Assembly: GCF_000018105.1 (NCBI RefSeq)
Contig: NC_009927.1
Location: forward strand, 180,001-212,000
DNA: 32,000 bases
Direction of reading: 5' to 3'
Origin: Acaryochloris marina MBIC11017
Lineage (GTDB): Bacteria; Cyanobacteriota; Cyanobacteriia; Thermosynechococcales; Thermosynechococcaceae
In this document: piece by piece, positions 2,592 through 26,183 of the stretch
Numbering within the stretch: position 1 is the first letter of the stretch
How the letters are laid out: each line of letters opens with the position of its first letter
Translations under genes and position numbers: made by a program
Notes under the pieces: model-generated
What the model saw: only the letters and a program-made list of their open reading frames with translations
The model's database searches: none
What the model was told of the DNA's origin: nothing

Positions 2592-2608
2592 GCTCTCCAG
2601 TCGGGCTA

Positions 2609-4760: not shown

Positions 4761-4788
4761 GATAGGGGAGTTTCAGCCGAGGCCAAAA

Positions 4789-5073: not shown

Positions 5074-5200
5074 GTTTGAGTCCTTATCAATGCACCTACT
5101 TTTTTAATAGGTGGGTTTTGGCTTGGGTCAAAATCCTGTATCGACATTGCGATGCTCTCCGAGCGGCCTTAGGCTATCGCATCGCTGTATCTCGAAATAA

Positions 5201-7221: not shown

Positions 7222-8004
7222 CTACTGAAGAGGCCTGGGCGCAGAACAAACGACTCGAAAACCGAGATTGCTGCTGAGGCTCTTGGGGCTGTCGTTGTTG
7301 CGGTAAGCAGAGCGGCAAATCCTCGGATAGTGTTTCCAGGAGCCGCCGCGACGAATCCGACCAGCGCTTTCATTCTTAGACAACCAAGCACTCCCATCTG
7401 TGGGGGCACCTTTGTAACTGTCATGCCAATGGTCTTGGCACCATTCAAAAACATTTCCATACATATCACTCAGACCAAAAGCATTGGCTATGCCGAAGTG
7501 ATCGACAGGGGTTGTTTCTTCGCCCACATAATTAGCGACATCATTAGTGATGGTTTCCCCAAAATAGTAAGGAGTGGTGGTGCCTGCTCGACAAGCATAT
7601 TCCCACTCTGCTTCACTAGGTAATCGATATGGACGCTTCGTTAGGCTATCTAGTCGATTGCAGAATTCAACAGCCTCATACCAAGAAACTTGTTCAACGG
7701 GACGATTTTCGCCTTTAAAGTAAGAAGGTTCTGATTTTAAAGAACGCTCTACTGTTTCTAATTCAGCTACCACTTTCCACTGAGCTTGAGTGACGGGATA
7801 ACGTGACATAAAAAACGCCGGAACCGTCACCTCATGTTGTGGATCTTCGCGGCCCAATCGATCAGGCTCATCTTCTGGAGAACCCATCATAAAGGTGCCG
7901 CCCGGTACGAGAACCATATGGAGAGGCAAAGCATTGGGAATCTCTAACAGGGGTTCAATATATCCACTGCCAGTACGAGGGGTGCGTCGAAGGGTAGGGG
8001 CCAT
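7222..8004 (-). CDS. stand-alone FGE-sulfatase-fold (FGS/C-type-lectin-fold) protein, DGR target 1
   Basis: Family signatures [54 protein letters not shown] and RRGGSW...CRSAYR...[10 protein letters not shown]. No signal peptide or TM. Confidence 0.9.
7235..7355 (-). repeat. DGR variable repeat VR1 (3' end of 7222..8004)
   Basis: Aligns base-for-base with the TR at offset -951. Encodes [37 protein letters not shown]. Confidence 0.75.
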
Positions 8005-8177: not shown

Positions 8178-8306
8178 GAAGAGTGCTGGGCGCAGAACAA
8201 ACGACTCGAAAACCGATATTGTTGTTGCGGTTCTCGGGGTTGTTGTTGTTGCGGTAAGCAGAGCGGCAATTCCTCGGATTGTTGTTCCAGGAGCCGCTGC
8301 TTTGCG
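8178..8306 (-). other. DGR template repeat (TR), non-coding copy of the FGS C-terminus
   Basis: The minus strand reads ...[38 protein letters not shown] with 12 AAC/AAT codons. There is no upstream FGS domain, no start codon and no stop-flank element. Mismatches to the four VRs are almost all at TR adenines. Confidence 0.8.
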
Positions 8307-8407
8307 GCCTACCCCAGAAATTAGCATAACTGGACTGACCTTATTGATGGCAAGGATACTGAGTTTCTTTATGCTGAATGGCGTCCTTTCTTTGATCACA
8401 TCTAACG

Positions 8408-8545
8408 ATGAATACTGAATTGCCCATCATCCAGAAAACCTACGACCTGATTAAATGGTATGTCCCGATCATCAATCGATTGCCCGGAGTTCATCGGTTT
8501 CAACTGGGAGAAAAGAGCAGACCATTAAAATTCGTAAAAGGGTAA
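8408..8545 (+). pseudogene. avd: truncated avd (DGR accessory variability determinant), 45 codons
   Basis: [36 protein letters not shown] matches my recollection of the N-terminus of cyanobacterial four-helix-bundle Avd proteins (about 115-130 aa). The frame degenerates and stops where the conserved 3' flank of the 8558..9394 gene begins. Confidence 0.55.
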
Positions 8546-8557
8546 GAGGGTATAGGA

Positions 8558-9394
8558 CTACGGAAGAGACCTGGGCGCAGAACACACTACACGAAAACCG
8601 ATACTGTTGTCGCGGAACTTGGGGTTGTCGTAGTAGCGGTAAGCAGAGCGGCAATACCTCGGATTGAAGTCCCAGGAGCCGCCGCGACGAACTCGATATG
8701 CACTGTCATTCTCAGATATCCAAGCACTTCCATCTGTGGGGCCACCATCATAATCATGCCAATGGTCTTGGCACCATTCCCAGACATTCCCATGCAGATC
8801 ACTCAGACCAAACGCATTGCCTCCACCAAAGTGATCTACGGGAGTCGTTTGTTGGCGGTATTCTCCTTTGGGGCCACCACCATAGGACCCTGACAAGCCG
8901 ATAGATTCATCACCAATTCCATCGTAATTTGCTAGGTCAGTGGTAATCGTTTCTCCAAAGTGAAATGGGGTTGTGGTGTCCGCTCGACAGGCATATTCCC
9001 ACTCTGCTTCCGTGGGTAAACGATATTGTCGATTTGTGAGGTTGGTGATGCGATCGCAAAACTCAACTGCGTCATACCAAGACACTTTCTCAACTGGGTT
9101 GAGGTCACCTTTGAAATTCGATGGTTCAGAATCTAGCTCCCGATTAACTTGTTCCATCGCTGCTACCACCCGCCATTGGGCTTGGGTGACGGGGTATTGA
9201 GCCATAAAAAACCGAGAAAGGGTTACCTCATGCTGCGGTCCTTCAAAGTCTGAGCGGTCAACTTCCTCATTCGGAGAACCCATCAGAAAAGTTCCAGCAG
9301 GTATCTGCATCATCCGCAAAGGCAGCACGCCCTCAGCAAGAATCTCGTCGTAGAACTGGAGTGGGGCTTTGGTTTTGGTTATCGTATAACTCAC
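8558..9394 (-). CDS. stand-alone FGE-sulfatase-fold protein, DGR target 2
   Basis: Same signatures: [52 protein letters not shown] and RRGGSW...CRSAYR...[10 protein letters not shown]. Confidence 0.9.
   Translation of the reverse strand: MSYTITKTKAPLQFYDEILAEGVLPLRMMQIPAGTFLMGSPNEEVDRSDFEGPQHEVTLSRFFMAQYPVTQAQWRVVAAMEQVNRELDSEPSNFKGDLNPVEKVSWYDAVEFCDRITNLTNRQYRLPTEAEWEYACRADTTTPFHFGETITTDLANYDGIGDESIGLSGSYGGGPKGEYRQQTTPVDHFGGGNAFGLSDLHGNVWEWCQDHWHDYDGGPTDGSAWISENDSAYRVRRGGSWDFNPRYCRSAYRYYDNPKFRDNSIGFRVVCSAPRSLP
8571..8691 (-). repeat. DGR variable repeat VR2
   Basis: Aligns with the TR. Encodes [37 protein letters not shown]. Confidence 0.75.
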
Positions 9395-9436: not shown

Positions 9437-12400
9437 CTACGGAAGAGACCTGGGCGCGGAACAAACGACTCGAAAACCGATAAGGTTGTCGCGGCCACCG
9501 GGGCCGTCGTTGAGGCGGGAAGCAGAGCGGCAATTCCTCGGAGGGCCGAGCCAGGAGCCGCCGCGACGCATCCGACGAGTGCTTTCATTCTCAGACAACC
9601 AAGCACTCCCATCCGTGGGTGCATCATAGTAATTGACATGCCAATAGTCTTGGCACCATTCCCAAACATTTCCATGCATGTCACTGAGACCAAACGCATT
9701 GGCAAAACTAAAATAATCTATAGGTGTTGTTTCTCCTCTTCTTTCACCTTTTGGACCATCTACAAAAGCACTTCCGCTGTAGTTAGCGACATCAGTAGTG
9801 ATCATGTCACCAAAGTGGAACGGGGTAGTGGTGCCCGCTCGACAGGCATATTCCCATTCGGCCTCCGTGGGTAATCGGTATTCACGGCCCGTGTATCTAG
9901 AAAGACGGTCACAAAACTCTATCGCGTCGAACCAGGATACTTTTTCTATTGGCCTATTATCCCCTTTGAATCTAGCTGGATCAGTCTCTAGTTCACGCTC
10001 AATCTGAGGTTGATTTGCAACGACTCGCCACTGAGCCTGGGTAATCGGGTAACGGCCTATAAAAAAGGACTCAACTGTAACTTGATGCTGAGGACCTTCA
10101 CGAACAAGCCTCTCAGGTTCAGTGTTTGGTGAACCCATCATAAAGGTACCAGCAGGTATTGATACCATTTCTAAATCTATTTTATCTAGTAGCCGCTCTA
10201 TATATCTATTTGCTGACTGTTGGTGTTGTTCCGTTTCCCATTTTTTCTGGCTCAAAATCAACTTAGCAACTGTAAAATCAAAGGATTCCACATTGATCGC
10301 ATCAGATATAGATTCCTCTGGCTGCAACCTTAAAATCGTGAAATCTCCTGTTTGCAACGGTGGCGGAAAGATATCTTGTTGAGAAGGCGGTACAAGGAGT
10401 GGATCATCCCAAAGGAAGGCTAGATCCCTAGCCCAATGGAATAATGGATTATCCTCTGTTGCTGCAAGACGAACGGCGAACACCTTCATGGGAATCTGCT
10501 CCATTGTTCCGTTGAGGATGTTCTCATTAAGAAACTGTTGCCAATTATCAGTGATTTTTTCTTTACGACTCCACAATACAATTGGAGTACCATTTTCAAG
10601 TACTCCTCTAACTTCTGCACTTTGGAAACCAGAGCCAAGGGTCAAGCCTAATCGAGAGCCTTGACTTAACGAGATCAGATCTTCAGGTTGACCAAAGGGC
10701 CAATTATCAAATGCATCGTTGGAATTATCGTTCCAACGTTCTTGCAACTGTGCCCACTGTAATTGCAATTTTTGGGTATATTGAAGACTCTCAACGCGCT
10801 CTTTTAAGCGCAACACTACAAAATTACAGTCCCTGCCAATCCCTATAGGATCATCGGTATTTGATAGAGAGGGGATGCCCATCTGTTCTATCGGTAAATC
10901 TAGTAAACTCTGGGGAAGAAACAGATGGATAGTGAAAACAGTCTTTTCAGTTTGGGTACGGGCTTGCTCTAATAAGCTGGCTAAAACACTTGGAATATCT
11001 TGAAAGGTAATCCCCTCAGATAATCTAGAGTCGCTACTACCATTTCCGTATCGATTGATATCCAAGGTAGATAAATACTGAACACCTTCTCCTGTCTGGG
11101 CATTGTAATTCTTGGGATTTGGCACCAACCAAGCGTCGACAAAGTACTGATCGGCCTTGGGACTACGTTCATCAAACGAGATAAGTAAAGTAGTGAGGGG
11201 CACTTTCGGAAGAATTTCTATGTCATTGGCAAGTACCCCTTCATCAAACTCGAATGCTTCGAGTTCAGGGAAGTTGATATATTCTGAAACTTGGTAGGTT
11301 AGGGTCTCATGGGTGAAACCTTCCAACCAAGCCACTTCATTTTGACGATTTTCTAAGCCTGAATCGTCTTGCCTCTGTTGACTCTCTAATTGGCGCACGA
11401 TTTCAGCAAAATCTGACCCAGCTGTACGTAAAATCTGAGCCGTCACTTTGGCAAAGGCTTTTAATCCATATTGGTCTACCTCATCTTTCAGATCAGGAGA
11501 TAGTAAGAGAGCTTGGAAATCAGCCAGTGTACAATTCAATCGTTCTGCGACATGTTGAGATACTTTTTCGATCACCTCAAGCTTGTCTACATTGGGTAGA
11601 ACATCCAGCAGGCGGTTGCGTACCGTCTCTGGAAAAAGATATTGTACGACTTCAGACTCTAACTCTGGTGGTTGTTCAGGTGCTTTGGTTAGTAGCCCTC
11701 CCAAAAACACCTCGGCCACAGGTAGGGGGGATGAACCAGGTAAGAACTCATCTGAAGCACGGATAAGTCGCATTACAGGCAGAGTTATAACAGGTGCTGC
11801 GGATAACAACGCAGCTAATCGCCGAGCTTCTGGCGTTGCCCTTAACCGAAAGTCTTCTAGCAAGCCATCAACAATTTCTTCTGACTCCAATTCGCTGGAT
11901 GTTGGGGTTGCGGACCATCCTGTTGAAGGCAACATAAAGCCTGGAGCTGAGTAGCGTCGATCTCCCGCTAACATTCGGCTCCAAGCACCAAGATATTCAC
12001 TATCACTCGTGATGATAGGAATACAGACTGGTGATGAGGATTGGGTTTCCTGGGTTTGGTCTGGTTCTTGATCACTCCGACGGCGACCACGATTCACAGT
12101 TGATCGCAAAGACATATAAATTGGGGTTAGTTTGGTGTTTTTTGCTCCCGGTGTTCGACTACGAACAGCCACATACTCTCCAATCCCTAATGCAGTTCGT
12201 TTCCACATCCAATCGGGTAACACTTGCCAGATCGCCGTGGGTGTTGAATCTCCCCAAAGGGACAATATTGGCTGCAACGAACCATCCCACCAGTAGTTGG
12301 CTGTGCAATCACTAAAGACTAAGATCAATCGCCGAGCATCGGGAGTTAAAAGTGCGTTAGGAGAGCGTAGTACTGGATCTGGGGCAGCACAGATGCCCAC

Positions 12401-13042
12401 TTCCCCCTGCTTCACATTGAGTTGCCAAACTCGAAAATCACGAAAAGAGCCATAACAGCGTAGCAACCTCCTTATATCTTGGATTAACCTCTGCCAAAGA
12501 TCCATCGCTGGGCTGCTATCAATGACCAAGGCCACTTCATACCACGGTTCTTGGTCCGGTTCTAGGATCGGGGACCAGATATCAGTTTCAGCAATGCGCT
12601 CAACTGTCTCAGCTTCATTCACTGAACTGCAAAACTGGGAATCAATTTGCTTCAAGATAGGCTTCAGTGCCCTGACTAGGGGTAAGGTTTCATCCAGAAT
12701 GTCAGGGTCAGGAATAGAGATGGGTAAAGCTTTTTGGGGAAGTTTCCCCGAAGGCAACTCCGGTGCAACGCCAAAGTCCGGTTCGTCTACCTCGTCATTC
12801 TGGTTATCATTGTCGTCATCCTCTTCGTTTCCTGCATCCTCTTCGTTTCCATTTTCCAAGTCGAGATTGTCATCATCAACATCCTCAAGCTCCAGGTTGT
12901 CATCAGGATCTTTGTTCTCTTGATCGACATCACTAACATCAAATTTCTCTGGTTCGCGCAATGCCAGCCATAGGATTTCAGCTATTTCAGTAGGGTCTAG
13001 CTTATATTCAGTCAGAGCGGACACAAATTGCTCAGTACTCAT
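9437..13042 (-). CDS. large multidomain protein: short N-terminal helical module, acidic linker, vWA-like domain, long middle region, C-terminal FGE-sulfatase-fold sensor (DGR target 3)
   Basis: vWA-like strand/MIDAS region YEVALVIDSSPAMDLW with a later LILVFSDCTANYW. D/E/N-rich linker at aa 36-90. The C-terminal 270 aa carry all FGS signatures ([10 protein letters not shown] ... RRGGSW...CRSASR...[10 protein letters not shown]). The start lies 14 nt after the MoxR stop. Confidence 0.85.
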   Translation of the reverse strand: MSTEQFVSALTEYKLDPTEIAEILWLALREPEKFDVSDVDQENKDPDDNLELEDVDDDNLDLENGNEEDAGNEEDDDNDNQNDEVDEPDFGVAPELPSGKLPQKALPISIPDPDILDETLPLVRALKPILKQIDSQFCSSVNEAETVERIAETDIWSPILEPDQEPWYEVALVIDSSPAMDLWQRLIQDIRRLLRCYGSFRDFRVWQLNVKQGEVGICAAPDPVLRSPNALLTPDARRLILVFSDCTANYWWDGSLQPILSLWGDSTPTAIWQVLPDWMWKRTALGIGEYVAVRSRTPGAKNTKLTPIYMSLRSTVNRGRRRSDQEPDQTQETQSSSPVCIPIITSDSEYLGAWSRMLAGDRRYSAPGFMLPSTGWSATPTSSELESEEIVDGLLEDFRLRATPEARRLAALLSAAPVITLPVMRLIRASDEFLPGSSPLPVAEVFLGGLLTKAPEQPPELESEVVQYLFPETVRNRLLDVLPNVDKLEVIEKVSQHVAERLNCTLADFQALLLSPDLKDEVDQYGLKAFAKVTAQILRTAGSDFAEIVRQLESQQRQDDSGLENRQNEVAWLEGFTHETLTYQVSEYINFPELEAFEFDEGVLANDIEILPKVPLTTLLISFDERSPKADQYFVDAWLVPNPKNYNAQTGEGVQYLSTLDINRYGNGSSDSRLSEGITFQDIPSVLASLLEQARTQTEKTVFTIHLFLPQSLLDLPIEQMGIPSLSNTDDPIGIGRDCNFVVLRLKERVESLQYTQKLQLQWAQLQERWNDNSNDAFDNWPFGQPEDLISLSQGSRLGLTLGSGFQSAEVRGVLENGTPIVLWSRKEKITDNWQQFLNENILNGTMEQIPMKVFAVRLAATEDNPLFHWARDLAFLWDDPLLVPPSQQDIFPPPLQTGDFTILRLQPEESISDAINVESFDFTVAKLILSQKKWETEQHQQSANRYIERLLDKIDLEMVSIPAGTFMMGSPNTEPERLVREGPQHQVTVESFFIGRYPITQAQWRVVANQPQIERELETDPARFKGDNRPIEKVSWFDAIEFCDRLSRYTGREYRLPTEAEWEYACRAGTTTPFHFGDMITTDVANYSGSAFVDGPKGERRGETTPIDYFSFANAFGLSDMHGNVWEWCQDYWHVNYYDAPTDGSAWLSENESTRRMRRGGSWLGPPRNCRSASRLNDGPGGRDNLIGFRVVCSAPRSLP
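9450..9570 (-). repeat. DGR variable repeat VR3
   Basis: Aligns with the TR. Encodes [37 protein letters not shown]. Confidence 0.75.
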
Positions 13043-13056
13043 TTACAGCCAGCCTC

Positions 13057-14238
13057 TCAGGTCAAACGCCTTAGCAAAATCTGTTTGAGCATTTCAAGTT
13101 CAGTTTCTTTATCCTCTTCACTCAAACCCGAACCCGATAGCTGAGACTGGCGAACCATGTAAATTAAATTGAGGAGCTGATCCGTTGCCAAAGAAGACTG
13201 TTTACGCTGAAGATCCTTGGCAAAGTTCTCAATCAATTGTGCAACTTTTGGTTCTAATTCTGACCAGGGCAGTTCTGTCTTAGGGCGGTCTTTCCGCTCA
13301 AAATGAGCACCTACTATATGGGTTAAAACGGCACTGTCAGAAGGATCTGGCATCGTGATTCGCAGACAGCGGCGCAAAAAGGCGGGGGGAAAGTCACGTT
13401 CTCCGTTACTAGTCATAATCACCAAGGGGAACTCATAACAAGTAACCTTGCCTTGCTCAATGTCAGCAGGGAGACCTTCATCCTCTGTACGGACTGGAAC
13501 AGGCACATCCGTTTTGTAGCGGACGAGTTCAGGTATCTCAAAACTACCTTCTTCAAAGAGGTTGAGAAGATCATTCGGTAAATTCAGCTCGCTTTTATCA
13601 ATTTCATCTATCAGCAATACTCGGGGTAAATGGGAAGGTAAAAAAGCGGTACCTACCGGGCCAAGTTGGATATAATCGCCAAGATTTCTACCTTGTTTTA
13701 ATTCATCAATTTTGTTGTGATCTAATGGCTGATCGTCCGACTTTGCCAGCAGCAACTGGAGTTCAAGTTCCGATTTATCAAATTGGGTGTCCTGCAAACG
13801 GGCAATCGCATCATAGCGATACTGGGCATCAGAAAGCTTGGAACGAGTGGTAATGGGCCAGAGCAAAACTGGCCCCAGTTGTAATTCATAGGCGATCGCA
13901 TAGGCTAAAGAGGTCTTACCTGAACCTGGATTTCCCGTGATAAGTAGTGGACGTCGCAATGCCAAGGCTGAGTTTATAGCTGAAATAATTTCAGATTGCC
14001 TACCTTCAGATTGACGGATACGAAAGCTTTCGCCACGTTCTTTTGAACGAGTATCAAGACGATTTGAGTCTCGCAATTGCTTCCAGCGAGTTTTACTAGC
14101 ACCAGCCCACTTATCCTCAAAGATTGCTTGTGACATAAACTGCCGCCATGCGGGTCGCTCCTGAATAGGTTTCAGGGCGGCTTGGCGGGGTGTCCTATCT
14201 TCATTGGGTTGGGCTGTAAAAAATTTCCAGTCAGTCAT
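13057..14238 (-). CDS. MoxR-like AAA+ ATPase
   Basis: Walker A LLITGNPGSGKTSLA, Walker B VLLIDEIDKS, sensor-1 VIMTSN, Arg-finger region PPAFLRRC. Single AAA+ module of 393 aa. Operonic with the vWA gene, which is the classic MoxR-vWA pairing. Confidence 0.85.
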   Translation of the reverse strand: MTDWKFFTAQPNEDRTPRQAALKPIQERPAWRQFMSQAIFEDKWAGASKTRWKQLRDSNRLDTRSKERGESFRIRQSEGRQSEIISAINSALALRRPLLITGNPGSGKTSLAYAIAYELQLGPVLLWPITTRSKLSDAQYRYDAIARLQDTQFDKSELELQLLLAKSDDQPLDHNKIDELKQGRNLGDYIQLGPVGTAFLPSHLPRVLLIDEIDKSELNLPNDLLNLFEEGSFEIPELVRYKTDVPVPVRTEDEGLPADIEQGKVTCYEFPLVIMTSNGERDFPPAFLRRCLRITMPDPSDSAVLTHIVGAHFERKDRPKTELPWSELEPKVAQLIENFAKDLQRKQSSLATDQLLNLIYMVRQSQLSGSGLSEEDKETELEMLKQILLRRLT

Positions 14239-14264
14239 AGTGGAATCACCAATCTTTTGGGCTT

Positions 14265-16211
14265 TTAAGTCGGTTGCGTCAACCGACCGGATTCATTGAC
14301 AGCTAATGTAGGTAAGCACGGTATCCGGGTGCAATTATCAAATAAAAACCCCAGTTCTTGAATCTTTTTTCGGTGGGTCAAAATTGACTCTCCCAAGGCA
14401 GCAGATTCCGTAAAATTCTCGGGTTTCAACACTTTATCCACAGTCTTTTTGAATTCATCCCCATTTACAGGAGTTTCATAAGTCCACAACCAAAGTGGCA
14501 CTTTCTCTTCAATCACTCCTGAAATTAAGCTTCTTAATTCATCTATATCTTCTGGCAATGTCTCCCAAAGTTTAAAGACCAGTTTCTCCGGTAATTCGTC
14601 TTCAAATATTTCATCCGTGAAACACTCTACGCAACAGGTATGTTGATCTAGAGGTTGTTGCATAGTTTTTAACTGCTGCATTCTAACCTTTAAATCTTTA
14701 ATCCATAATTCAGACCAAAGTGGATCTAATAATCGATCTAATGAGCGAACAACAGTGTTGTATGGAAATCGCCAAAGTGGCTTACGACGTGTTTTTCCTA
14801 AACTCGTCCAAATTTTCCATTTGTGAACAGGCTGCCCAAAATGTTGCCAAGACAAGAAAATCTCAACCGCTCTCACTTCCCCCGCATTGGGAATTACTTC
14901 TGATAAGTGCTCCCATACTTGTTCAATCGAGCATTTAGGATAATCGGTTAATAAACTTGTTCTTGTTTGTTCTCCGCAAACATAGAGTTCCGCCAAAATT
15001 CGAACGGTATCTACCGTAGCACTTGCATCACCAGGTTCCGTATCTACAACAGGCTCTAATGTGACCAGAAGATATTTCTGACTCGGTTCTTGCTTTGGGT
15101 CAACTTCAAGCTCGGTGGGTGCGTTAGCGTCATACCATACCTGCCATTCAGGTTTTATTTCACATTCATTCTCATTGTTAGGAAAGTCTTGTAACTTTTT
15201 GATCAGATGACCGACCCAAGACACTGCCAACACCTGATCGTCCAACCGAATAAGGGCCTGCTTCAACGCGGCGAAGGTTTCAATCGAGCCTAGTAAATCG
15301 TCTTTACGATTGTCTAAAACCTCCCTCAGTGCAGCTTCAAGAAAATCTAGATCATAATCTCCCAAGCATATAAATAAATCGTCCCAAAACTTAGTCTCAA
15401 CCTTATAAGAAGTTTTCCCTACTCCAGGAATTCTGGGTTTAGGGTCATAATTTGCCAACAGGTGAAAAGCTAAAGCACTGGCATGATGAGAAGCCTTTTG
15501 CTGACGCTTATCTTCAGATTTTTGCCCCTTGCCATCATTCTTATGATCAATCAAGTCTGAGATGCCCCGAATCACAATAGCGGATAGTGGTTTGTCACGG
15601 GCATTGACAGCCTCAAGGAATCCATATCCTTCCATCTCCACGGCCAAAGCATCACTATAATTTTTTCGCAGCAATTTATAAACGTTCGACTCTTTTGAAG
15701 CCACTACCTTTTCGCCAACAGCGATTGGCCCCACCCTAAGGCGAGGGGTTGTATTATAAGGCTGTTTAACTCTTGCCAACCAATTTGGTGCTTCACTTCG
15801 GGCTTCTGCCTTGGCTTCCTCTACCAGGCTGAAGCCACTCAAGCCAATGTGAGGTCGTGGTTTGAATTCTTCCTCAGCCTTACCGGATTCATAGCCATAG
15901 ATTTTTGTAGACGCAACGACATCACCTATATCTACATCTTTTAGACCTCCCGCTACACCGACAAAGAAAACAACATCAGGATCAAAATATGTAATGGCCC
16001 GTTCTGTTTGTAGGGCAGATCTTGAGTCACCAGCTCCAGTCTGCACGATGCCTACTGTCCATATGCGACCATTCGCTTTAAATGTCCCCTTCTCATATCG
16101 ATTTCCTTCAGGATGAATAATGCGCGTGGGATCGGCGACAAACTTTCTTACTTCTTTAAATTCAACGGGTAATGCTGTCAGAATGACGGCTTTCAAGGAA
16201 TCCTGAACCAT
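14265..16211 (-). CDS. nucleoside phosphorylase/nucleosidase-fold (PNP_UDP_1-like) effector fused to a ~400-aa C-terminal region (vWA-MoxR-associated, VMAP-like)
   Basis: N-terminal 250 aa: AVILTALPVEF, VQTGAGDSRSAL, FFVGVAGGL, AVEMEGYGF and VIRGISDL. These are the conserved strands and loops of the MTA/SAH-nucleosidase / PNP fold. The stop lies 26 nt upstream of the MoxR start. Confidence 0.8.
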   Translation of the reverse strand: MVQDSLKAVILTALPVEFKEVRKFVADPTRIIHPEGNRYEKGTFKANGRIWTVGIVQTGAGDSRSALQTERAITYFDPDVVFFVGVAGGLKDVDIGDVVASTKIYGYESGKAEEEFKPRPHIGLSGFSLVEEAKAEARSEAPNWLARVKQPYNTTPRLRVGPIAVGEKVVASKESNVYKLLRKNYSDALAVEMEGYGFLEAVNARDKPLSAIVIRGISDLIDHKNDGKGQKSEDKRQQKASHHASALAFHLLANYDPKPRIPGVGKTSYKVETKFWDDLFICLGDYDLDFLEAALREVLDNRKDDLLGSIETFAALKQALIRLDDQVLAVSWVGHLIKKLQDFPNNENECEIKPEWQVWYDANAPTELEVDPKQEPSQKYLLVTLEPVVDTEPGDASATVDTVRILAELYVCGEQTRTSLLTDYPKCSIEQVWEHLSEVIPNAGEVRAVEIFLSWQHFGQPVHKWKIWTSLGKTRRKPLWRFPYNTVVRSLDRLLDPLWSELWIKDLKVRMQQLKTMQQPLDQHTCCVECFTDEIFEDELPEKLVFKLWETLPEDIDELRSLISGVIEEKVPLWLWTYETPVNGDEFKKTVDKVLKPENFTESAALGESILTHRKKIQELGFLFDNCTRIPCLPTLAVNESGRLTQPT

Positions 16212-16298
16212 TCAAATTTGTGATTTTTTTAGGGTTTCTAGTCTAATGCTCAGTAGAAAATACAAGTATAGTGATTAGGTAATACCATATTTAGAATA

Positions 16299-16853
16299 AT
16301 GGATCGAACTGAGAAAACATTACAAATATTTTTGGAAGAATATCGTGTCCTCAAAGCTGAACAAAATAGTCGAATCGGATTTCGAGACAATCTACTCTAT
16401 GTCACATTAGGTCTTTTTGGTGGAATCCTTTCTTTTGCCCTAACAAACGATAACGGGACAAACGCATTACTTGTTGTTCCTTGGGTCTGTATAGTTATGG
16501 GCTGGACCTATGTAGTCAATGATGAAAAGATTTCAGCGATAGGTCGCTATATTAGACACAATCTTGAAAAAAGGATTTCTAATCTCATTGAAGGGTCTGC
16601 AGATTCCGAATCTTTGTTTGGTTGGGAAAAAGCTCATCGCAGCGATTCTAAACGAACAAGTCGCAAATACTTACAGCTATTAGTAGACGAAGTTGCTTTT
16701 GTTTTTTCAGGCTTAGCAGCAATAGTTCTATTCTGCTTATCCAGTACTAATTGCCCAACCCCAATCATCATTTTAATAGCCTTTGAATCTTTCTTCCTCA
16801 TTAGTTTAGGAATCACAATTGCTATCTATGCTGATTTAGCAAAAGGACGCTGA
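16299..16853 (+). CDS. integral membrane protein (184 aa, about 4 TM), function unknown
   Basis: Hydrophobic segments LLYVTLGLFGGILSFAL, ALLVVPWVCIVMGWTYV, VAFVFSGLAAIVLFCL and IIILIAFESFFLISLGITIAIY. Divergent from the PNP-MoxR-vWA operon. Confidence 0.5.
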   Translation: MDRTEKTLQIFLEEYRVLKAEQNSRIGFRDNLLYVTLGLFGGILSFALTNDNGTNALLVVPWVCIVMGWTYVVNDEKISAIGRYIRHNLEKRISNLIEGSADSESLFGWEKAHRSDSKRTSRKYLQLLVDEVAFVFSGLAAIVLFCLSSTNCPTPIIILIAFESFFLISLGITIAIYADLAKGR

Positions 16854-16908
16854 ACTAGCCAGATTTCCAGTCATTATAAAAATTGCAAGAGGGAAAAAGG
16901 GTAAAGGG

Positions 16909-17709
16909 CTACTGAAGAGGCCTGGGCGCTGAACAAACTACTCGAAAACCGATATGGCTGAGGCGGCTCTCGGGGGAGTTGTAGGAGCGGCAAGCAGAGC
17001 GGCAATCCCACGGATAGCTGTACCAGGAGCCGCCGCGAATAACGCTAGAGTCATCAATTCTATCCCCCTCCCAAAAGGGGCTACCATCTGATGGCACGTC
17101 AAGGTAATCAGAGCCGTAGTAGTCTTGGCACCATTCCCAGACATTGCCATGCATATCATATAACCCCCAACGATTAGGGGAATAACTTTCAACAGCACTT
17201 GTTTGGCCTATCATTTCATCTTCTAAGTAATTTGCCAGTTTGGGAGTGATTTTTTGCCCAAAATGATATGCAGTCTGAGTTTCAGCTCTACAGGCATATT
17301 CCCACTGGGTTTCACTAGGTAAGTGAAAATTTTTTCCAGTCTTTGATGACAGGCGCTTGCAAAATTCTACTGCTTCATACCAACTTACCGACTCTACAGG
17401 GAAGTCATCACTTTCGAATGCTGAAGGTGATAGATCTACAGTTCCATCTTGTTCTTCATACCCGGCTACTACCCGCCACTGTTCCTGAGTAACAGGTGTA
17501 GTTCCCATCAAAAATTGAGGTAATTGGATACATTTTTGGCGTTGTTTATCTTGGGTGTCACCTGATTCATTTTCATCATTACTAATCCACAATTCCCCTG
17601 CAGGAATAAGCATTAATGTCAGTGGCACATCATCACCGAGATCTATGGTGTAGCTCTCATTCGTACACTCATATTCAAAGAGGGTGAGGGAATCAACAGT
17701 ATTAGCCAC
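16909..17709 (-). CDS. stand-alone FGE-sulfatase-fold protein, DGR target 4
   Basis: [42 protein letters not shown] and IRGGSW...CRSACR...[10 protein letters not shown]. More diverged in its N-terminal half than the other paralogues. Confidence 0.9.
   Translation of the reverse strand: MANTVDSLTLFEYECTNESYTIDLGDDVPLTLMLIPAGELWISNDENESGDTQDKQRQKCIQLPQFLMGTTPVTQEQWRVVAGYEEQDGTVDLSPSAFESDDFPVESVSWYEAVEFCKRLSSKTGKNFHLPSETQWEYACRAETQTAYHFGQKITPKLANYLEDEMIGQTSAVESYSPNRWGLYDMHGNVWEWCQDYYGSDYLDVPSDGSPFWEGDRIDDSSVIRGGSWYSYPWDCRSACRSYNSPESRLSHIGFRVVCSAPRPLQ
16922..17042 (-). repeat. DGR variable repeat VR4
   Basis: Encodes [37 protein letters not shown]. In the 81-nt variable core, all 16 mismatches to the TR are at TR adenines (hand alignment). 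Confidence 0.8.
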
Positions 17710-17855
17710 TGACCTAGAGAGAAGATGTTAGTGATTTTTAAGCAGATACATAATTTGATATTTGATCATTGTTGCACCATCTACTATATTTTTGGCCTTT
17801 CATAAGAATTTGCCTATCTATATAAATATAGGCCAACAATTTTTTGAGCTAGTCT
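17710..17855 (+). promoter_or_regulatory. candidate oriT / relaxase promoter region
   Basis: AT-rich intergenic segment directly upstream of the relaxase. It contains the inverted repeat TTGGCCT..(28 nt)..AGGCCAA enclosing GCCTAT-CTATATAA-ATAGGC (about 17793..17841). No nic site could be identified by eye. Confidence 0.3.
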
Positions 17856-20800
17856 ATGCTAAACATTACCACCATCAACTCAAATATCAAGGATGGGGCC
17901 AAGTACTACACCAAAGAAGAGAGTTACTACAGCCAAAACAAAGAAATTCAGAGCATGACTCAAACAGAATGGTTTGGCAGCATGGCACCGGATGAGCATT
18001 ACTCTGCCGAGCTTTTCACGGAGATGTTTTACGGCAACCTTCCCAACGGCGGGCGTATGCGAAATGAGGTCAAGGGAAAGGGCCAAGAACGCTTAGCTTA
18101 CGACCTTACATTCTCTGTTCCTGGTAAATCTCTCAGCATGTCTATCCACGGACCTAACGGAGATAAGCGACTCTGGAATGCCCACGTTGAGACTATCAAG
18201 GAAGTGCTGGCCATCGTAGAAGAACGCTACGCCGCCGCTAGAATTCAGGCCAACAATGATCGCCAAGTTGTGAAGACAAGCAGCATCGCCGCTGCCCTCG
18301 TCCACCACCATGAAACCAGAGCTGGGGATCCGCATGTACATACCCATGTCGTTCTTTTCAACGGCACCCTATGCCCGGACGGTGAATATAGGGCTATGTA
18401 TATCGAGCCTCTCATTAGAAGCGGTATTTTAGGCGATCTGTACGACCAGAAGATGGCCCTCAAAGTCCAAGAGCTGGGCTATGAAATCCGAGAGACAAAA
18501 ACAGGCTTTGACCTTGCCGGGGCTACAGATGAGCAGATTAAAAAATTCAGTAAGCGCTCAACGGAAATCGAGGATTATTTAAAAGAGAAAGGTTGGAGCA
18601 ACACCCCAAAAAATCGACAGAAGGCAACCTTTGAGACTCGAATCGGCAAGGATATTACGGAGTCATTAGAGCAGAAGCAGGAAAGATGGGGAGAAGAGAT
18701 GGCCTCAGTCGGTTTCCATGGCCTAACTCCTTCCGATCAACCTATCAAGCCTGAAAGCCAAGAGACACCCAGAGAGCTTTTAGACGCTGCTATCGAACAT
18801 CTAACAGAACATCAATCCTCGTTCAATGCCGAGGACATACAGCGGTTTGTGTTCTCTCACCTCCGAAGTTTTGATGAGAAGCCCTTGAACACCGAGATAT
18901 CCAAGCACCCGGACTTGCTAACTGCCTGGGATGGCCGACTGACTACACAGACCGCTGTCGATAGAGACCAACGAATTCTAGATATCGTCCTGTTTAAGGA
19001 TAGTAAGGTTGAACCGCTGAACCCAACCGCTGACTTTAGCGACACGATGTTAAACAGTGGTCAGGCCGAAGCCATGAAACGCTTACTCAGCTTTTCAGAT
19101 CAGTACCAAATCCTAAAGGGACTAGCAGGCACGGGGAAGACAACTGCTCTCGGCCTTGCAAGAGAGCAGTTACCCCCGGATGTCGATATCAAAGTTTTTG
19201 CACCTACCCACAACGCCAAACATCAAATCAGTGAGGCCTTTGGACTTAAGGGGGCAACCATAGCCAGCTTTGTTGTCAGCCCACCCCCAGAAGGGGCTAA
19301 CCAGCTTTGGATATTTGATGAAGCGGGCATGTTTGGCAGCGCAGACATGGAGAAGATACTTCAGAAAGCCGAACAGGTGGGGGCTAGGTGTTGGTTTGTC
19401 GGCGACACGGGTCAGAATGCCTCTATCTCTGCTGGTGCGCCTGTACGAATGCTGATGAATAGAGGGGTCACAGTTCACCGCCTTGACCAGATCATTAGAC
19501 AGCAAAACAAAGAACAGCTTAGGGCCGTTGAGCTTATCGCCGATGGTCACGGGGTTGAGGCTCTCAGAGCCTTAGAAAAAAATGGAAATATCAGAGAAGT
19601 CGAGGACTCGGAAACCAAGCTCACAAGTGCCGTTGCCTATTACATGGAGAAGCCTAAACATCGCCGAGACAAAACTCTCGTTGTGGTGGGGACCAATGCT
19701 GAGCGGTTTGGTTTTACCAAACTCCTAAGAGCCGAGCTTATCAAGGAAGGCCAGCTTACCAAGAATACAGAATTCACCCAGCTCCAGCGAAGAAACCTAT
19801 CTAAGGCCCAAAAGAAACGGGCCGAGAACTATAACAAGGGCGATTTACTGGTACTGCACAAGAAGCACCGACTCTATACCCAATTGCAGACCCATGTCCC
19901 TTATAAAGTCCTCGCCGTGGAGGGCAAAAAACTCAAGGTCCAATCACTGGGCGGTCGGAATTTCACCATCAATCCTGCAGAACATGAGTTAACCCAGGCT
20001 TATACGACAAGGCGCAATCAAATTGCTGTTGGTGATAAGCTCCGGTTCACTTCAACCAACATGAAAAAGGATATTCACAATAATGCTTTTTTGACCTGCA
20101 CCGATATCAAAGATCAGATTGCAACGGTCAAAGACAAACACGGTCGAGTGCATCACTTAGACCTCACCAAGCCCCTACAGATAGATCATGACTGGGCCAC
20201 TACCACTTATAGATCACAAGGTAGTACCAACTCAGAAACCCTCTATATTGCTAGCCTTAACCCTACCTCAGCTAGAGAATCCTTTTATGTTGGCATCTCC
20301 CGAAACAAGACTAAATACCTGACCGTATTTACGGAGGACCTGAGTAAGCTCCAAGAGTGGGTTGCACAGTCCAATGCTCAAGAGAACGCACTAGAGATAC
20401 TATTTGACCCCCATGCGGGCTGGAGTCCAACCTATGACAAGGAAGAACGGCCCTTTGGCTTGGATGAGGACACATGGACCGAGATGAAAGGTAGCGGTAT
20501 TCACCCCAACCTATTGACCTCGAACCATCTCCGAAGTGAAGCCCCCGATCCTTATGGATCTATCCGTGATAACCCACTAGTTGCAGCCCTCTTGGAGGCT
20601 GAGTTTACCAAGTCCAAATACGGCAAAGGCCAGGAAGTTACTGGCAAAATGAAACAATATCTACACGGTGCTTCGACAGTGGAAGGCCATACCGTCTATG
20701 ACCATGAAAAAGAATATGGTCGGATTGCTCAAGGTGGGGGTTGGATTGGTTATGGTGGCGTTGATTTGCTTTCAGTCATTGAGGGCAATCCTCAACCATC

Positions 20801-21809
20801 CCAGTATTGCCAGGTCAAACCTAAAACCCCCCGCATCTTTGACGGCAAAGAGAATAAGTATGAAACGCCGAAAGGGGTAGATCAACAAGTCTTCTTACCT
20901 CATATTCCCCATGAGATTGAGGAACGGATTTATCAGCGTAACGGTATCAGTCCCACCGCAGAGGAGCGGACTAAAGGTATCTGGTCTGTCGCGGACAAAT
21001 ACAATCTGCCCCTTGTCATCACAGAAGGCCTGAAAAAGACATGGGCATCCCTCAGCCAAGGTCACCTAACCGTAGGCTTGCCCGGTGTGACTGCCTTGTA
21101 CCGGGCTAAGAATGAACATGACGAGCGACTACCCCAGCGAGAGCTTACGGAATACGGCAAGGCCTTGGCTAAACCTGGCAGGCAAATCACGTTGGCCTTT
21201 GATCAAGACACGAAAGTATCGAGCATCCTAAATGTGCGCCGAGATTTGGTGAGAACAATCGAGCTAATGCAGACTAGGGGAGTTGTCTGCAAGATTGCCC
21301 AATGGAAGCCAGAGCTAGGTAAAGGCCTGGACGATCTAATTGTGAAAGCTGGCCCGAAAGCCTATAACCTTGCGATCGCAAATGCTGTTAGGCCTGATGC
21401 TGAAATTAAGCGTCACTATAGAACCCAGTACAACGCCATCACCAAGCGGGCTATAAAACGCTTCGGCGACATACCTAAAGAACGGCTGGACATGGAAGTT
21501 TACAGCTATTGCCTATCACCGGATAACGGCGCAACCATCAATGATGCCCATCGGTTCTTGTCCGCTTCGGATCACATGCGATCGGCTGAACCTGGGGACT
21601 ATAAGCGCTATATGCTGGCTATCCACAAAACCCATGGGATCTATCAGGATATTTTGGCCTCTGGTAAGCCACCTAATGAATTGGTGACAAAGCTGGTCGA
21701 GCATTCGGTTTATGAACAGCTAGCCGAAGAACTCAAAGAGAAAGACCTACTCTATCCAGAGCAGACCCTTTCAGATAATCAATCTCAGGGTTATTCAGTT
21801 GGGTTCTAG
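17856..21809 (+). CDS. MobF-type (TrwC/TraI-like) relaxase fused to a RecD-like helicase and a C-terminal Toprim (DUF3854-like) domain
   Basis: N-terminal Tyr pairs (AKYYTKEESYY). His-triad motif HHHETRAGDPHVHTHVVLFN. Helicase Walker A GLAGTGKTTAL, Walker B LWIFDEAGM and TTYRSQGST. C-terminal Toprim Glu VITEG and acidic AFDQDT. Confidence 0.9.
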   Translation: MLNITTINSNIKDGAKYYTKEESYYSQNKEIQSMTQTEWFGSMAPDEHYSAELFTEMFYGNLPNGGRMRNEVKGKGQERLAYDLTFSVPGKSLSMSIHGPNGDKRLWNAHVETIKEVLAIVEERYAAARIQANNDRQVVKTSSIAAALVHHHETRAGDPHVHTHVVLFNGTLCPDGEYRAMYIEPLIRSGILGDLYDQKMALKVQELGYEIRETKTGFDLAGATDEQIKKFSKRSTEIEDYLKEKGWSNTPKNRQKATFETRIGKDITESLEQKQERWGEEMASVGFHGLTPSDQPIKPESQETPRELLDAAIEHLTEHQSSFNAEDIQRFVFSHLRSFDEKPLNTEISKHPDLLTAWDGRLTTQTAVDRDQRILDIVLFKDSKVEPLNPTADFSDTMLNSGQAEAMKRLLSFSDQYQILKGLAGTGKTTALGLAREQLPPDVDIKVFAPTHNAKHQISEAFGLKGATIASFVVSPPPEGANQLWIFDEAGMFGSADMEKILQKAEQVGARCWFVGDTGQNASISAGAPVRMLMNRGVTVHRLDQIIRQQNKEQLRAVELIADGHGVEALRALEKNGNIREVEDSETKLTSAVAYYMEKPKHRRDKTLVVVGTNAERFGFTKLLRAELIKEGQLTKNTEFTQLQRRNLSKAQKKRAENYNKGDLLVLHKKHRLYTQLQTHVPYKVLAVEGKKLKVQSLGGRNFTINPAEHELTQAYTTRRNQIAVGDKLRFTSTNMKKDIHNNAFLTCTDIKDQIATVKDKHGRVHHLDLTKPLQIDHDWATTTYRSQGSTNSETLYIASLNPTSARESFYVGISRNKTKYLTVFTEDLSKLQEWVAQSNAQENALEILFDPHAGWSPTYDKEERPFGLDEDTWTEMKGSGIHPNLLTSNHLRSEAPDPYGSIRDNPLVAALLEAEFTKSKYGKGQEVTGKMKQYLHGASTVEGHTVYDHEKEYGRIAQGGGWIGYGGVDLLSVIEGNPQPSQYCQVKPKTPRIFDGKENKYETPKGVDQQVFLPHIPHEIEERIYQRNGISPTAEERTKGIWSVADKYNLPLVITEGLKKTWASLSQGHLTVGLPGVTALYRAKNEHDERLPQRELTEYGKALAKPGRQITLAFDQDTKVSSILNVRRDLVRTIELMQTRGVVCKIAQWKPELGKGLDDLIVKAGPKAYNLAIANAVRPDAEIKRHYRTQYNAITKRAIKRFGDIPKERLDMEVYSYCLSPDNGATINDAHRFLSASDHMRSAEPGDYKRYMLAIHKTHGIYQDILASGKPPNELVTKLVEHSVYEQLAEELKEKDLLYPEQTLSDNQSQGYSVGF

Positions 21810-24329: not shown

Positions 24330-26183
24330 TTATAGAGGCAGTACAGTAACGGGCTTATCGTCACCCTGTGCTTGGGCCTGTGCCTCTTTCTCGGCCTTCT
24401 CCTTGGCTTTCTTAGCGGCTAACTCCCTAGCTCTTACTACGTCGGGGTGTGGTAGCAGGGAATTGGCTACTCGCTCTCTTAAGGCGATCTCATCTTCAAT
24501 GGTGACGGTGGTTACTTTCCCGGTTTCGGGATCTGTAAAAGAGGTTTGATTGCTTGCGTGTTCTTCCTGCAAAGCTGGTAACAGTTTTTCTTCCCAAGCC
24601 TTTACGCATTGTTTCTCCATTTTGGCCGTCTTGGAATTTGGATCGTAAGGAATCGGCTTATCTAGAAAGCTAATTGGGTGAGGGTATGAAGCGCTTGATA
24701 TCACGCAACGTCCCGCTAATTTCTGCTCGTCCAGCTTTTCAGCGGGAACTAATGGAACCTCTTTAAGCTGATCACTTGATCCGGTAGTCCTATTATTCGA
24801 GCTGTGAGACGAGTTGGCCGTATTGATAACGATGGTCTTCTTACCTAAGCTCTCAGAAACGATTTTGTGATAATCGTGTTCACCCGTATTGAAATAGGCT
24901 TTGTTCTTCAGGTTCGCCTCAATTCCCTTCCATTGAGCTTTGCCGTAGGCCTCTTCCATAGCGCTGTTTTGCTGGTAGGCAAGCCAGAACGTACCGCCTT
25001 TCTTCCGAGCCAATTTAGCGAGTGCGCTTAAGTCAGGCAGAATGAAAAAGTTAGCCTCATCGCTAATCAGGGTAAGGTTTCTGTCTCTGTTTCTTTGAGG
25101 GTCAAGATTGTAGTTGAGCCATAAGTGCAAGGCTGTAGCAACTAGCGGGGAAGTAGCTTTAAGCTGAGTCCGATCGAGCCGACAATAGACGATCGACGGT
25201 CCCGAATGCTCAAGGGGAATTGTCGAGGGCAGGAAGGCCTTAGCTACTTCAGGATCAATGAACTTTGAGAACATATTAAACGCGCTCGACTGGATCGAGG
25301 CTGAGGGGCTGTCTCCTTTGCCCTTACCTTGGCTTGCAACCGCTCTTAAGCCAGCGCTGGACTGTTTAGCGTAGAACGAAAGCTCTTTGCCAAGCCGCCC
25401 TGTTTTAGCTGCGATGTCCAACCTTTCGGCTAAGTCCGGTAGCGTAATGATGGCCCAAACCATGAGCATGTCAGGGTATCTGGATCCTTTAGCCAACATC
25501 AGGGCCGTTTCCATCAGTGCATCACTCTGTGGCCCAAAATAGGCATGGCGTTTTTGCGTGTCCTCTTGGGTATTGACGTTGAGGCCTCTGCTAATCTCTT
25601 GGGCCTTCGCTTTGTCGTTTGGATGCCTCATCACTTCCAGGAAGTTAAACGATCCGCCAAACTGTACAAGCTTGCCAAGGGGTGATAGGGACTGAACGCC
25701 AGGGGCATAGGCGTAGATTCGACCTTTGTAACCGTTAGCGTGAGCGTATGCCGCTGTTGCTTTAATCAGCTCTCCTTCAACGTCAGTGACAAAAATTGAA
25801 TGCTTTTGCTTGATTGCCGATCTGAGTGTTGGGATTATAAAATTCTTTGATTTACCCGTACCCGATAGACCAGGGAAAACGCCGCCTGGATTACTGAAAG
25901 CAAATGTGATGCCGGTTTCTGGGTTCAGCTCAAATGCTGTTTCTGTTAATTCTCCTTTGGCAATTTGCCGCCGTGCCTCTCGGTTCCCTGCTCTGATCTC
26001 ATCCTTGGTTGAGAAACGAGCATTAGGCATTCCGTCAGGGATCTCAGTCTTAGGCTTGCCGTTCAGGATAAACACACAAACGACAAGGATCACGACTGCG
26101 ATTATCGGACCAACGAAAGTCCCTAAGCCTTGCTGTTGTCCTGGCTGTGGTGGCCTTGGTGGTGGCTGGGTAGAAGATTGCAC
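24330..26183 (-). CDS. type IV secretion coupling protein (VirD4/TraG/TraD-like ATPase)
   Basis: N-terminal TM FVGPIIAVVILVVCVFIL. Walker A FPGLSGTGKSKNFIIPT. Walker B-like LTLISDEANFF. Size and position next to relaxase/T4SS genes fit. Confidence 0.75.
   Translation of the reverse strand: MQSSTQPPPRPPQPGQQQGLGTFVGPIIAVVILVVCVFILNGKPKTEIPDGMPNARFSTKDEIRAGNREARRQIAKGELTETAFELNPETGITFAFSNPGGVFPGLSGTGKSKNFIIPTLRSAIKQKHSIFVTDVEGELIKATAAYAHANGYKGRIYAYAPGVQSLSPLGKLVQFGGSFNFLEVMRHPNDKAKAQEISRGLNVNTQEDTQKRHAYFGPQSDALMETALMLAKGSRYPDMLMVWAIITLPDLAERLDIAAKTGRLGKELSFYAKQSSAGLRAVASQGKGKGDSPSASIQSSAFNMFSKFIDPEVAKAFLPSTIPLEHSGPSIVYCRLDRTQLKATSPLVATALHLWLNYNLDPQRNRDRNLTLISDEANFFILPDLSALAKLARKKGGTFWLAYQQNSAMEEAYGKAQWKGIEANLKNKAYFNTGEHDYHKIVSESLGKKTIVINTANSSHSSNNRTTGSSDQLKEVPLVPAEKLDEQKLAGRCVISSASYPHPISFLDKPIPYDPNSKTAKMEKQCVKAWEEKLLPALQEEHASNQTSFTDPETGKVTTVTIEDEIALRERVANSLLPHPDVVRARELAAKKAKEKAEKEAQAQAQGDDKPVTVLPL

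Follow-up and report, generated by a model that had tools for sequence, protein, structure and literature searches.

A predicted VMAP-type vWA–MoxR ternary conflict system with a nucleosidase-like effector on a plasmid of Acaryochloris marina MBIC11017

VMAP ternary systems have been defined by Kaur, Burroughs, Iyer and Aravind (eLife 2020, PMC7159879), who list a nucleoside phosphorylase (PNPase) among the domains found at the N-terminus of VMAP proteins. According to these authors, fusion of an FGS domain to the vWA protein is nearly confined to cyanobacteria, and ~80% of the cyanobacterial and gammaproteobacterial VMAP systems are associated with a diversity-generating retroelement (DGR); Acaryochloris marina MBIC11017 is included in their genome list. 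A model for such loci has been put forward by Doré et al. (PNAS 2024, PMC10907252), in which a DGR-diversified vWA protein with a C-type lectin domain (vWA-CLec) senses, MoxR relays and the VMAP N-terminal domain executes. As for the phosphorylase-like (PNP) domains, those of the Cap17/DtcC clade cleave ATP and dATP, and mutation of their catalytic site abolishes defence (Rousset et al. 2023, bioRxiv 10.1101/2023.01.24.525353); the supplements of that study contain no mention of Acaryochloris, FGE, MoxR or vWA. The present analysis deals with a locus of strain MBIC11017, located in a stretch of 32,000 nucleotides (the "window") of its 356,087-bp plasmid, in which a PNP-VMAP gene, a MoxR-type ATPase gene and a vWA-VMAP-C-FGS gene follow each other. 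By its domains and motifs, this locus is very probably a VMAP-type vWA-MoxR ternary conflict system.

The three genes are open reading frames (ORFs) of the minus strand separated by gaps of 26 and 14 nt, as the original prediction had them. They encode the PNP-VMAP protein ABW31987 (14265..16211, 648 residues), a MoxR-type AAA+ ATPase (13057..14238, 393 residues) and the putative sensor, the vWA-VMAP-C-FGS protein ABW31985 (9437..13042, 1201 residues). The PNP, MoxR-type AAA+, vWA-like and FGS domains that had been proposed from the letters alone were all recovered as Pfam or NCBIfam matches in a hidden Markov model (HMM) check, and the link drawn to the ternary systems of the Aravind group is sound, the class description of Kaur et al. 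fitting the locus. Two of the domain descriptions had to be amended. In the first protein the PNP domain stands, but the "~400-aa uncharacterised region" that follows it is in fact the family-defining VMAP module. The third protein is indeed vWA-like with a DGR-diversified FGS end, but it possesses a VMAP-C domain of its own that had been overlooked.

In the PNP-VMAP protein, the PNP_UDP_1 domain (PF01048) covers residues 8-252 (nt 15456-16190, E 4.9e-24) and VMAP-C (PF20028) residues 416-625 (nt 14337-14966, E 2.5e-17). The PF20028 match identifies the ~400-residue non-PNP region as a VMAP-M/VMAP-C module, and the protein displays the layout by which Kaur et al. define the third protein of VMAP systems, namely an N-terminal effector domain, a helical VMAP-M and a VMAP-C. 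An AlphaFold2 (AF2) model of residues 261-648 (nt 14265-15431), with a mean predicted local distance difference test (pLDDT) value of 80.9, shows a helical bundle followed by an α/β domain, and a possible description of this module is a helical repeat followed by a caspase-like α/β domain. Homology to TPR-CHAT (Craspase) or separase was considered and set aside, the Foldseek matches being weak (E 6e-3 to 0.1, TM 0.26-0.32), and no His/Cys dyad being spaced as in caspases. The orthologues of the protein share a strongly conserved C-terminal tail, GRLRQPAA, which reads GRLTQPT in the window (nt 14265-14300, minus strand); this tail may be a peptide by which the vWA MIDAS (metal ion-dependent adhesion site) or MoxR takes hold of the protein.

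As far as sequence comparison can tell, the PNP domain falls within the Cap17/DtcC clade, that of the immune ATP nucleosidases. Its predicted catalytic residues E17, M193/E194 and S218/D219 are invariant in 25 orthologues, and the counterparts of E. coli MtnN E12, M173/E174 and S196/D197 are intact in the window PNP and in all reference PNPs. The references were chosen by architecture from plasmids and comprise a type III CBASS (cyclic oligonucleotide-based antiphage signalling system) "phosphorylase" of Cap17 size and context, a SAVED-PNP adjoining a CD-NTase, the receiver-PNP proteins (DtcC-like) of two Detocs-like operons, and four MtnN genes. In a neighbour-joining tree of 16 PNP domains, a small sampling in which MtnN alone stands for the housekeeping nucleosidases, the window PNP and other cyanobacterial PNPs cluster with the CBASS and Detocs PNPs, apart from the four MtnN, in 100/100 bootstraps. 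The cyanobacterial PNPs of this group are fused to TIR, STAND, FGS, GUN4 or EAD domains. HMM scores point in the same direction, with 119, 68, 59 and 59 for the defence PNPs versus 24-47 for MtnN, and the identity between the window PNP and the Cap17/DtcC-type PNPs amounts to ~25-33%.

The best Pfam match of the second gene product is AAA_5 (32.5 bits, versus a cut-off of 22), a model that also scores above its cut-off in 10/10 orthologues. The ATPase motifs named in the original prediction are intact and invariant in the orthologue alignment: Walker A (GNPGSGKT, residues 102-109, nt 13912-13935), Walker B (LLIDE, residues 208-212, nt 13594-13617), sensor 1 (TSN, residues 276-278, nt 13405-13416) and an arginine pair (RR, residues 289-290, nt 13366-13380). 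Plasmid homologues of the protein are annotated as MoxR family. Sequence searches of the PDB, with the single sequence as well as with a profile, returned only P-loop matches of the RuvBL, p97 and ClpB type, which are uninformative on the clade. The N-terminal extension harbors the motifs WKFFTA (nt 14212-14229; the alignment consensus, WxFFT[GA], ends in G) and PAWRQF (nt 14137-14154), of which W4, P29, W31 and R32 are invariant or nearly so. These match the motifs WxhapG and PsWRxa that Kaur et al. described in the N-terminal extension of the MoxRs of VMAP systems, to which they are unique.

The sensor is composed of three recognizable parts. An NCBIfam SAV_2336_NTERM/vWA region spans residues 17-502 (nt 11537-12994, E 1.2e-103), an inserted VMAP-C domain residues 672-881 (nt 10400-11029, E 1.8e-30), and an FGE-sulfatase/FGS domain of C-type lectin fold residues 958-1193 (nt 9464-10171, E 7.8e-55), the end of which contains one of the DGR variable regions (VR3, core 9450-9561; see below). 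Among 47 homologues, the MIDAS aspartate D175 is conserved in at least 90% and D245 is invariant. The AF2 model of residues 1-560, built from the 47 sequences (pLDDT 74.5), displays an N-terminal helical pair, a disordered acidic linker (residues 30-113), an α/β core and a C-terminal helical domain. Its strands end at D175 and at residue 244, just ahead of D245, and helices flank the vWA domain. The top PDB match of this model in Foldseek is chain 9qhe_G of the NorQD complex (E 1.5e-3, probability 0.99), presumably NorD, a vWA protein that partners a MoxR-type ATPase. Lower matches include CMG2, CLCA1, ITIH1, Rpn10 and midasin MIDAS domains, mixed with phosphoribosyltransferases. The linker between the helical extension and the vWA core is a low-complexity segment rich in D, E and N (nt 12703-12955) with pLDDT below 50; a similar acidic linker has been described for the vWA family by Kaur et al. 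(PMC7159879). The vWA component is not matched by the PADLOC phage-defence models.

The VMAP-C domain of the sensor is a rarity. Of the vWA protein's 120 best homologues, two only contain PF20028, the window protein and its 88% identical orthologue; typical vWA orthologues are ~840-980 residues long, and their vWA C-terminal extension leads directly into the FGS domain. Residues 560-940, searched exhaustively with HMMER against 1.84 billion representatives, retrieved only the 88% orthologue and one further vWA fusion (P0241), so that the vWA-VMAP-C-FGS architecture is found in three protein clusters of that collection. The next relatives of the inserted domain are the C-termini of trypsin-VMAP-M1-VMAP-C proteins (~30% identity). 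A recent duplication as the origin of the two VMAP-C domains of the locus was considered and rejected, their identity being 22% over 77 residues (E 0.038).

To evaluate the conservation of the locus, 78 genome loci were fetched by means of an alignment of PNP-VMAP orthologues, and 14 of them (L007-L019 and L022) contain a PNP-VMAP gene that is full-length or truncated by the contig end. Co-occurrence of the three genes across genomes, which the original prediction had set as a check, is evident: PNP-VMAP, MoxR and vWA genes follow each other on one strand in every sufficiently long contig of this set, as well as in a further locus, L090. In the 14 loci, MoxR is 59-79% and the vWA N-terminal region 42-70% identical to its counterpart in the window. 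The three genes are, in most of these loci, also preceded by a standalone FGS gene and followed by one to three FGS genes, and the order FGS / 4-TM / PNP-VMAP / MoxR / vWA-FGS / FGS, in which 4-TM designates a gene for a protein with four transmembrane (TM) helices, is kept. This gene order recurs in 13 cyanobacterial genomes. The description of the locus as a unit of three genes was consequently too narrow, the PNP gene being accompanied by the 4-TM gene and the conserved cassette including three standalone FGS targets. In the window, none of the cassette's seven protein genes is disrupted.

Purifying selection acts on every part of the cassette. Ratios of nonsynonymous to synonymous substitution rates (dN/dS), computed against the 80-96% identical orthologues of L090, lie between 0.12 and 0.32, with 0.12 for MoxR, 0.23 for the sensor, 0.31 for the 4-TM gene and 0.32 for PNP-VMAP. 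Judged by its ratio of 0.24, the VMAP-C insert of the sensor is under purifying selection as well. The highest value among the regions compared, 0.55, is that of the VMAP middle region. The synonymous rate (dS) between window and L090 is uneven along the genes (1.18 for the FGS domain versus 0.13 for the vWA region of the sensor, and 0.69 for VMAP-C versus 0.14 for VMAP-M in the PNP protein); the genes are therefore mosaics.

The 4-TM gene (16299..16853, plus strand, 184 residues, four predicted TM helices) is divergent from the PNP gene, from which it is separated by 87 nt. A homologue is located upstream of 39/88 PNP genes in the 78 genome loci; 37 of these are divergent, with a median gap of 160 nt. 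The homologues are 50-71% identical over their full length, and invariant motifs include RIGFRDN, GWTYxVNDEKIS and GWExAHRxD. In cyanobacteria, they adjoin PNP-VMAP genes and also PNP domains fused to quite different partners. In the reciprocal test, a PNP gene was found at most 2.5 kb upstream in 31/58 metagenome loci of the 4-TM gene, and anywhere within the retrieved locus, which extends up to 6 kb on each side, in 45/58. From this linkage, the 4-TM protein is a candidate partner of the PNP domain. It has no match in Pfam, NCBIfam, PADLOC or PDB sequences. A SLATT identity was considered and is not supported, 0/24 family members matching the SLATT models of Pfam at E <= 5.

The FGS domain of the sensor is one of four in the window that have been diversified in the past, in an adenine-specific manner, from a single template repeat (TR). 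The TR core (8186..8297, sense on the minus strand) is a non-coding, AAC-rich segment of 112 nt with 30 adenines. Four variable regions (VRs) derive from it; as delimited by TR/VR alignment, each occupies the 3' end of an FGS domain in a minus-strand target gene. Besides the sensor, which carries VR3, the targets are standalone FGS genes: target 1 (7222..8004, 260 residues, PF03781 1.7e-54, VR1 core 7235-7346), target 2 (8558..9394, 278 residues, PF03781 1.7e-53, VR2 core 8571-8682) and target 4 (16909..17709, 266 residues, PF03781 1.4e-43, VR4 core 16922-17033), all three on the minus strand. The VRs are changed at 9-18 of the 30 TR adenine sites versus 2-3 of the 82 other sites (Fisher p 3e-4 to 4e-11), the individual counts being 9/30 vs 3/82 for VR1, 12/30 vs 3/82 for VR2 and 16/30 vs 2/82 for VR4. 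In the reading frame of the targets, 29/30 TR adenines occupy codon positions 1-2, and the 16 variable codons would allow ~10^16 protein variants. The 2-3 non-A mismatches per VR are compatible with a degree of drift after homing last took place.

In the plasmid collection, pREC1 of A. marina MBIC10699, typed as conjugative, MOBF and MPF_T, comes nearest, and its TR is the same as that of the window in the alignment, bar one base at the 5' edge. Between the two plasmids, 3.7% of the non-A VR sites differ, versus 9.5-19% in the bodies of the two target genes that they share; homing therefore continued after the target genes diverged.

The reverse transcriptase (RT) that should drive this process is missing. 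In the 32-kb window, no [YF]xDD motif is found in an RT-like long ORF, the two matches in long ORFs lacking RT context. None was found either in the ~10 kb beyond the right end of the window, which contain type IV secretion and sigma-factor genes; on the left, the contigs retrieved for the end gene stay wholly within the window. What is left is a remnant of avd (8408..8545, plus strand), in which ~35 codons (8408-8512) precede an out-of-family tail and a stop; it starts with four extra residues, followed by ~31 that differ from the Avd of pREC1 by two substitutions. Between the TR and target 2 (8298-8557), an interval of ~230 nt, a deletion has removed the remainder of avd and the entire RT gene. 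In pREC1, a 369-residue RT and an avd with an IS200/IS605 insertion at its start occupy this place, and the metagenomic locus L091, which has the same sensor architecture as the window, possesses an intact RT and bAvd at the equivalent position. In that locus, on a contig of 1.2x coverage, the vWA-VMAP-C-FGS gene (2029-5880) is broken into several called ORFs, which may reflect decay or assembly damage. The TR sense strand of the window is that of the target genes, opposite to avd/RT, with a spacer of ~110 nt, and TR and avd-RT would therefore be transcribed divergently. This layout recurs in pREC1 and L091; in L015, avd/RT are co-oriented with the targets.

With RT absent and avd truncated, the DGR is non-autonomous. 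The claim that the sensor is hypermutated thus holds for the past, as seen in the A-biased VRs, and is unproven for MBIC11017 at present. The sensor repertoire of the strain is probably frozen, since the DGR no longer makes cDNA on its own. Five assemblies from separate runs are 100.000% identical to the window over the VRs they cover, a consensus comparison that is blind to minority variants and may bear on one strain only. For MBIC11017, the DiGReF collection has one DGR RT entry only, described as "split by IS4 element". A missing RT is no peculiarity of the window. Among L007-L019 and L022, RT and avd lie within 10 kb in only one locus (L015), in agreement with the remark that the TR may lie elsewhere in the genome (Kaur et al., PMC7159879). 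Only the last ~76 codons of RT are kept in L008 (16993-17220).

The core of the locus, as judged from the comparison with pREC1, is an exchangeable cassette between sister plasmids. The backbones are 97.6% identical from 17856 onwards and 80-95% on the left, and common to the two plasmids are also the TR, the FGS targets and, in the sensor gene, the FGS part. From ~10352 to 17856, however, the cores belong to different lineages, the vWA N-terminal regions being 28% and the MoxRs 47% identical. As effector, the PNP-VMAP of the window stands against a trypsin-VMAP and CU044_2847 in pREC1, and the inserted VMAP-C of the sensor is 24% identical to the VMAP of pREC1. The junction within the sensor lies at the N-terminal edge of the FGS domain (~10352, inside the 1201-residue gene). 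The right-hand edge of the cassette is a gene of the plasmid backbone, that of the MOBF (TrwC) relaxase-helicase (17856..21809, plus strand; Pfam TrwC 3.1e-69, AAA_30).

From these elements, a functional chain can be proposed that is, on balance, probable: ligand binding by FGS, switching by MoxR/vWA, docking through VMAP-C and an ATP-nucleosidase output, with the 4-TM protein as a possible co-effector. The variable FGS tip of the 1201-residue vWA protein would bind an invader molecule, and the three small standalone FGS proteins may do so as well. By analogy with NorQ-NorD, RavA-ViaA and midasin, the MIDAS vWA domain and the MoxR ring would turn this binding into ATP-driven remodelling. The signal would then be relayed via VMAP-C docking domains, one on the effector and a second one, unusually, in the sensor, and the N-terminal PNP domain of VMAP would be released or activated. 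Its most likely activity would be the cleavage of ATP/dATP to adenine and (deoxy)ribose-5'-triphosphate, leading to growth arrest or abortive infection. The 4-TM protein would probably be a partner of the PNP domain, either as a co-effector in the membrane or as a regulator.

Several points weigh against this chain. Its defence function, ligand, signalling direction and PNP substrate are all inferred and, as the original prediction had said of defence, no experimental test of any VMAP ternary system was found in the literature consulted. The MoxR-clade assignment draws on the AAA_5 match, the motifs and annotation, and the vWA fold match is real but weak (E 1.5e-3), mixed with other Rossmann-like folds. 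Without RT, the "adaptive" element is not operating autonomously here. Finally, Kaur et al. (PMC7159879) propose that VMAP is the sensor and the vWA-fused domains the effectors, and suggest that the PNPase makes a second messenger.

This published model amounts to the opposite wiring, in which the variable VMAP-M senses the invader, MoxR transduces and the vWA-fused FGS neutralises invader molecules, PNP producing a base- or sugar-phosphate-derived messenger that gates the 4-TM protein as effector. It would account for the VMAP middle region having the highest dN/dS of those compared, and the linkage of 4-TM and PNP genes across many architectures is what a signal producer and its receiver are expected to show. 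The window PNP belongs, however, to a clade whose tested members are ATP-depleting effectors, a lectin-fold domain diversified by a DGR is a binding module better suited to a sensor, and the 4-TM protein matches neither SLATT nor any other known model of messenger-gated effectors. The opposite wiring is thus considered unlikely, though of some weight.

The chain from FGS to PNP further presumes that invaders are the target. The locus could instead be a tunable signalling or cell-fate module (regulation, kin/self recognition, programmed cell death in aggregates), or serve plasmid addiction or competition; the position of the cassette next to the relaxase of a conjugative plasmid, its swapping between sister plasmids and the failure of the PADLOC models to match the vWA component would suit such roles. 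Against this stand the clade of the effector and its fusion partners (TIR, STAND/NLR-like, SAVED, EAD), which are typical of immune systems, and the several comparative grounds on which Kaur et al. (PMC7159879) place the class among conflict systems, so that a role other than defence appears quite improbable. It is very improbable that the locus is a decaying relic, heading to loss and devoid of current function since the departure of its RT. The truncated avd, the deleted RT, the non-A mismatches that suggest drift of the VRs since the last homing, the nearby IS605-family TnpB and the RT fragment likewise retained in L008 would agree with decay, but the seven protein genes are intact, and dN/dS against L090 is 0.12-0.32 for the four genes compared. 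Furthermore, most related loci keep the cassette without an RT within 10 kb, and the TR may be elsewhere, as noted by Kaur et al. (PMC7159879).

A more speculative idea, which is rated as rather improbable, is that the window exemplifies an undescribed sub-architecture, with a VMAP-C docking handle on both sensor and effector and a mobile two-gene module of PNP and 4-TM. The MoxR ring might then engage two VMAP-C clients at once, or sensor and effector might pair through VMAP-C; in the two-gene module, the nucleosidase product, or the loss of ATP, might gate the membrane protein. If true, the docking would provide a first handle on VMAP-C function, and the module would give the Cap17-clade nucleosidases a new output branch in many cyanobacterial conflict systems. 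Whatever their fate, the sensor VMAP-C and the PNP-linked 4-TM gene offer concrete, testable hypotheses on docking and output. More generally, an anticipatory, antibody-like recognition tied to a cell-suicide effector has its best bacterial candidates in VMAP ternary systems with DGR-diversified sensors. The deletion of RT makes the window copy a poor one for showing ongoing hypermutation, and a good "frozen" background for the restoration of RT-avd.

The surroundings of the cassette agree with the conjugative element that had been announced. In addition to the TrwC/MOBF relaxase, a 1317-residue protein that has a C-terminal DUF3854 besides the TrwC and helicase parts, the window encodes a type IV coupling protein of TraG/TraD type (24330..26183, minus strand; Pfam TraG-D_C, T4SS-DNA_transf, TrwB_AAD_bind), a ParM-like protein and an M23 peptidase. 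The TnpB of the IS605 family (3468-4721, plus strand; OrfB_IS605, HTH and Cas12f1-like TNB domains) has no adjoining tnpA and is called as 398 and 417 residues in two assemblies; a 384-residue ORF on the opposite strand (3423-4577), without family match, is probably spurious. Scans for promoters and terminators gave matches at or below chance expectation.

Compared with the VMAP systems of Kaur et al., the locus displays the same three core components, the same MoxR N-terminal motifs, MIDAS aspartates and helical extensions in the vWA protein, an N-terminal PNPase on VMAP, and a vWA-fused FGS diversified from a TR. It differs by the VMAP-C in its vWA component, which was not found described in the text of that paper, by the divergent, PNP-linked 4-TM gene and by a DGR without RT. 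In the cyanobacterial loci of clade 5E of Doré et al., MoxR and a VMAP effector likewise accompany a vWA target whose VR lies in a C-terminal CLec/FGS domain, together with short targets made of CLec only, and the proposed direction of the signal, from sensor to MoxR to VMAP effector, is the same. Their examples, however, have peptidase or TIR effectors, active DGRs and VR diversity at the population level, whereas the window has a PNP nucleosidase effector, a deleted RT and identical VRs in five assemblies.

With the class, the PNPase-VMAP, the FGS-vWA fusion and the DGR linkage published by Kaur et al. in 2020 and the working model of the original prediction by Doré et al. in 2024, the locus represents a known, untested class, and its novelty had been overrated. 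The new content is limited to the sensor VMAP-C, the PNP-linked 4-TM gene, the RT-less DGR and the exchangeable cassette.

With Cap17 of CBASS and DtcC of Detocs, the window PNP shares the PNP_UDP_1 clade, the catalytic residues and the position as N-terminal or effector module of a multi-part immune-type system. The activator differs, a cyclic oligonucleotide in CBASS and a phosphorelay in Detocs, and would be the MoxR/vWA switch in the window. The sister plasmid, pREC1 of MBIC10699 (NZ_AP026076.1), has in common with the window the backbone, the TR and the FGS targets, and its vWA gene ends in the same C-terminal FGS portion; it differs by its trypsin-VMAP + CU044_2847 core, its sensor without VMAP-C, the lack of a 4-TM gene and the presence of RT and avd. 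A cultured strain and a sister plasmid with the same backbone, TR and targets, another core and a retained RT thus constitute a natural swap experiment, in which the parts that set specificity could be told from those that set the output.

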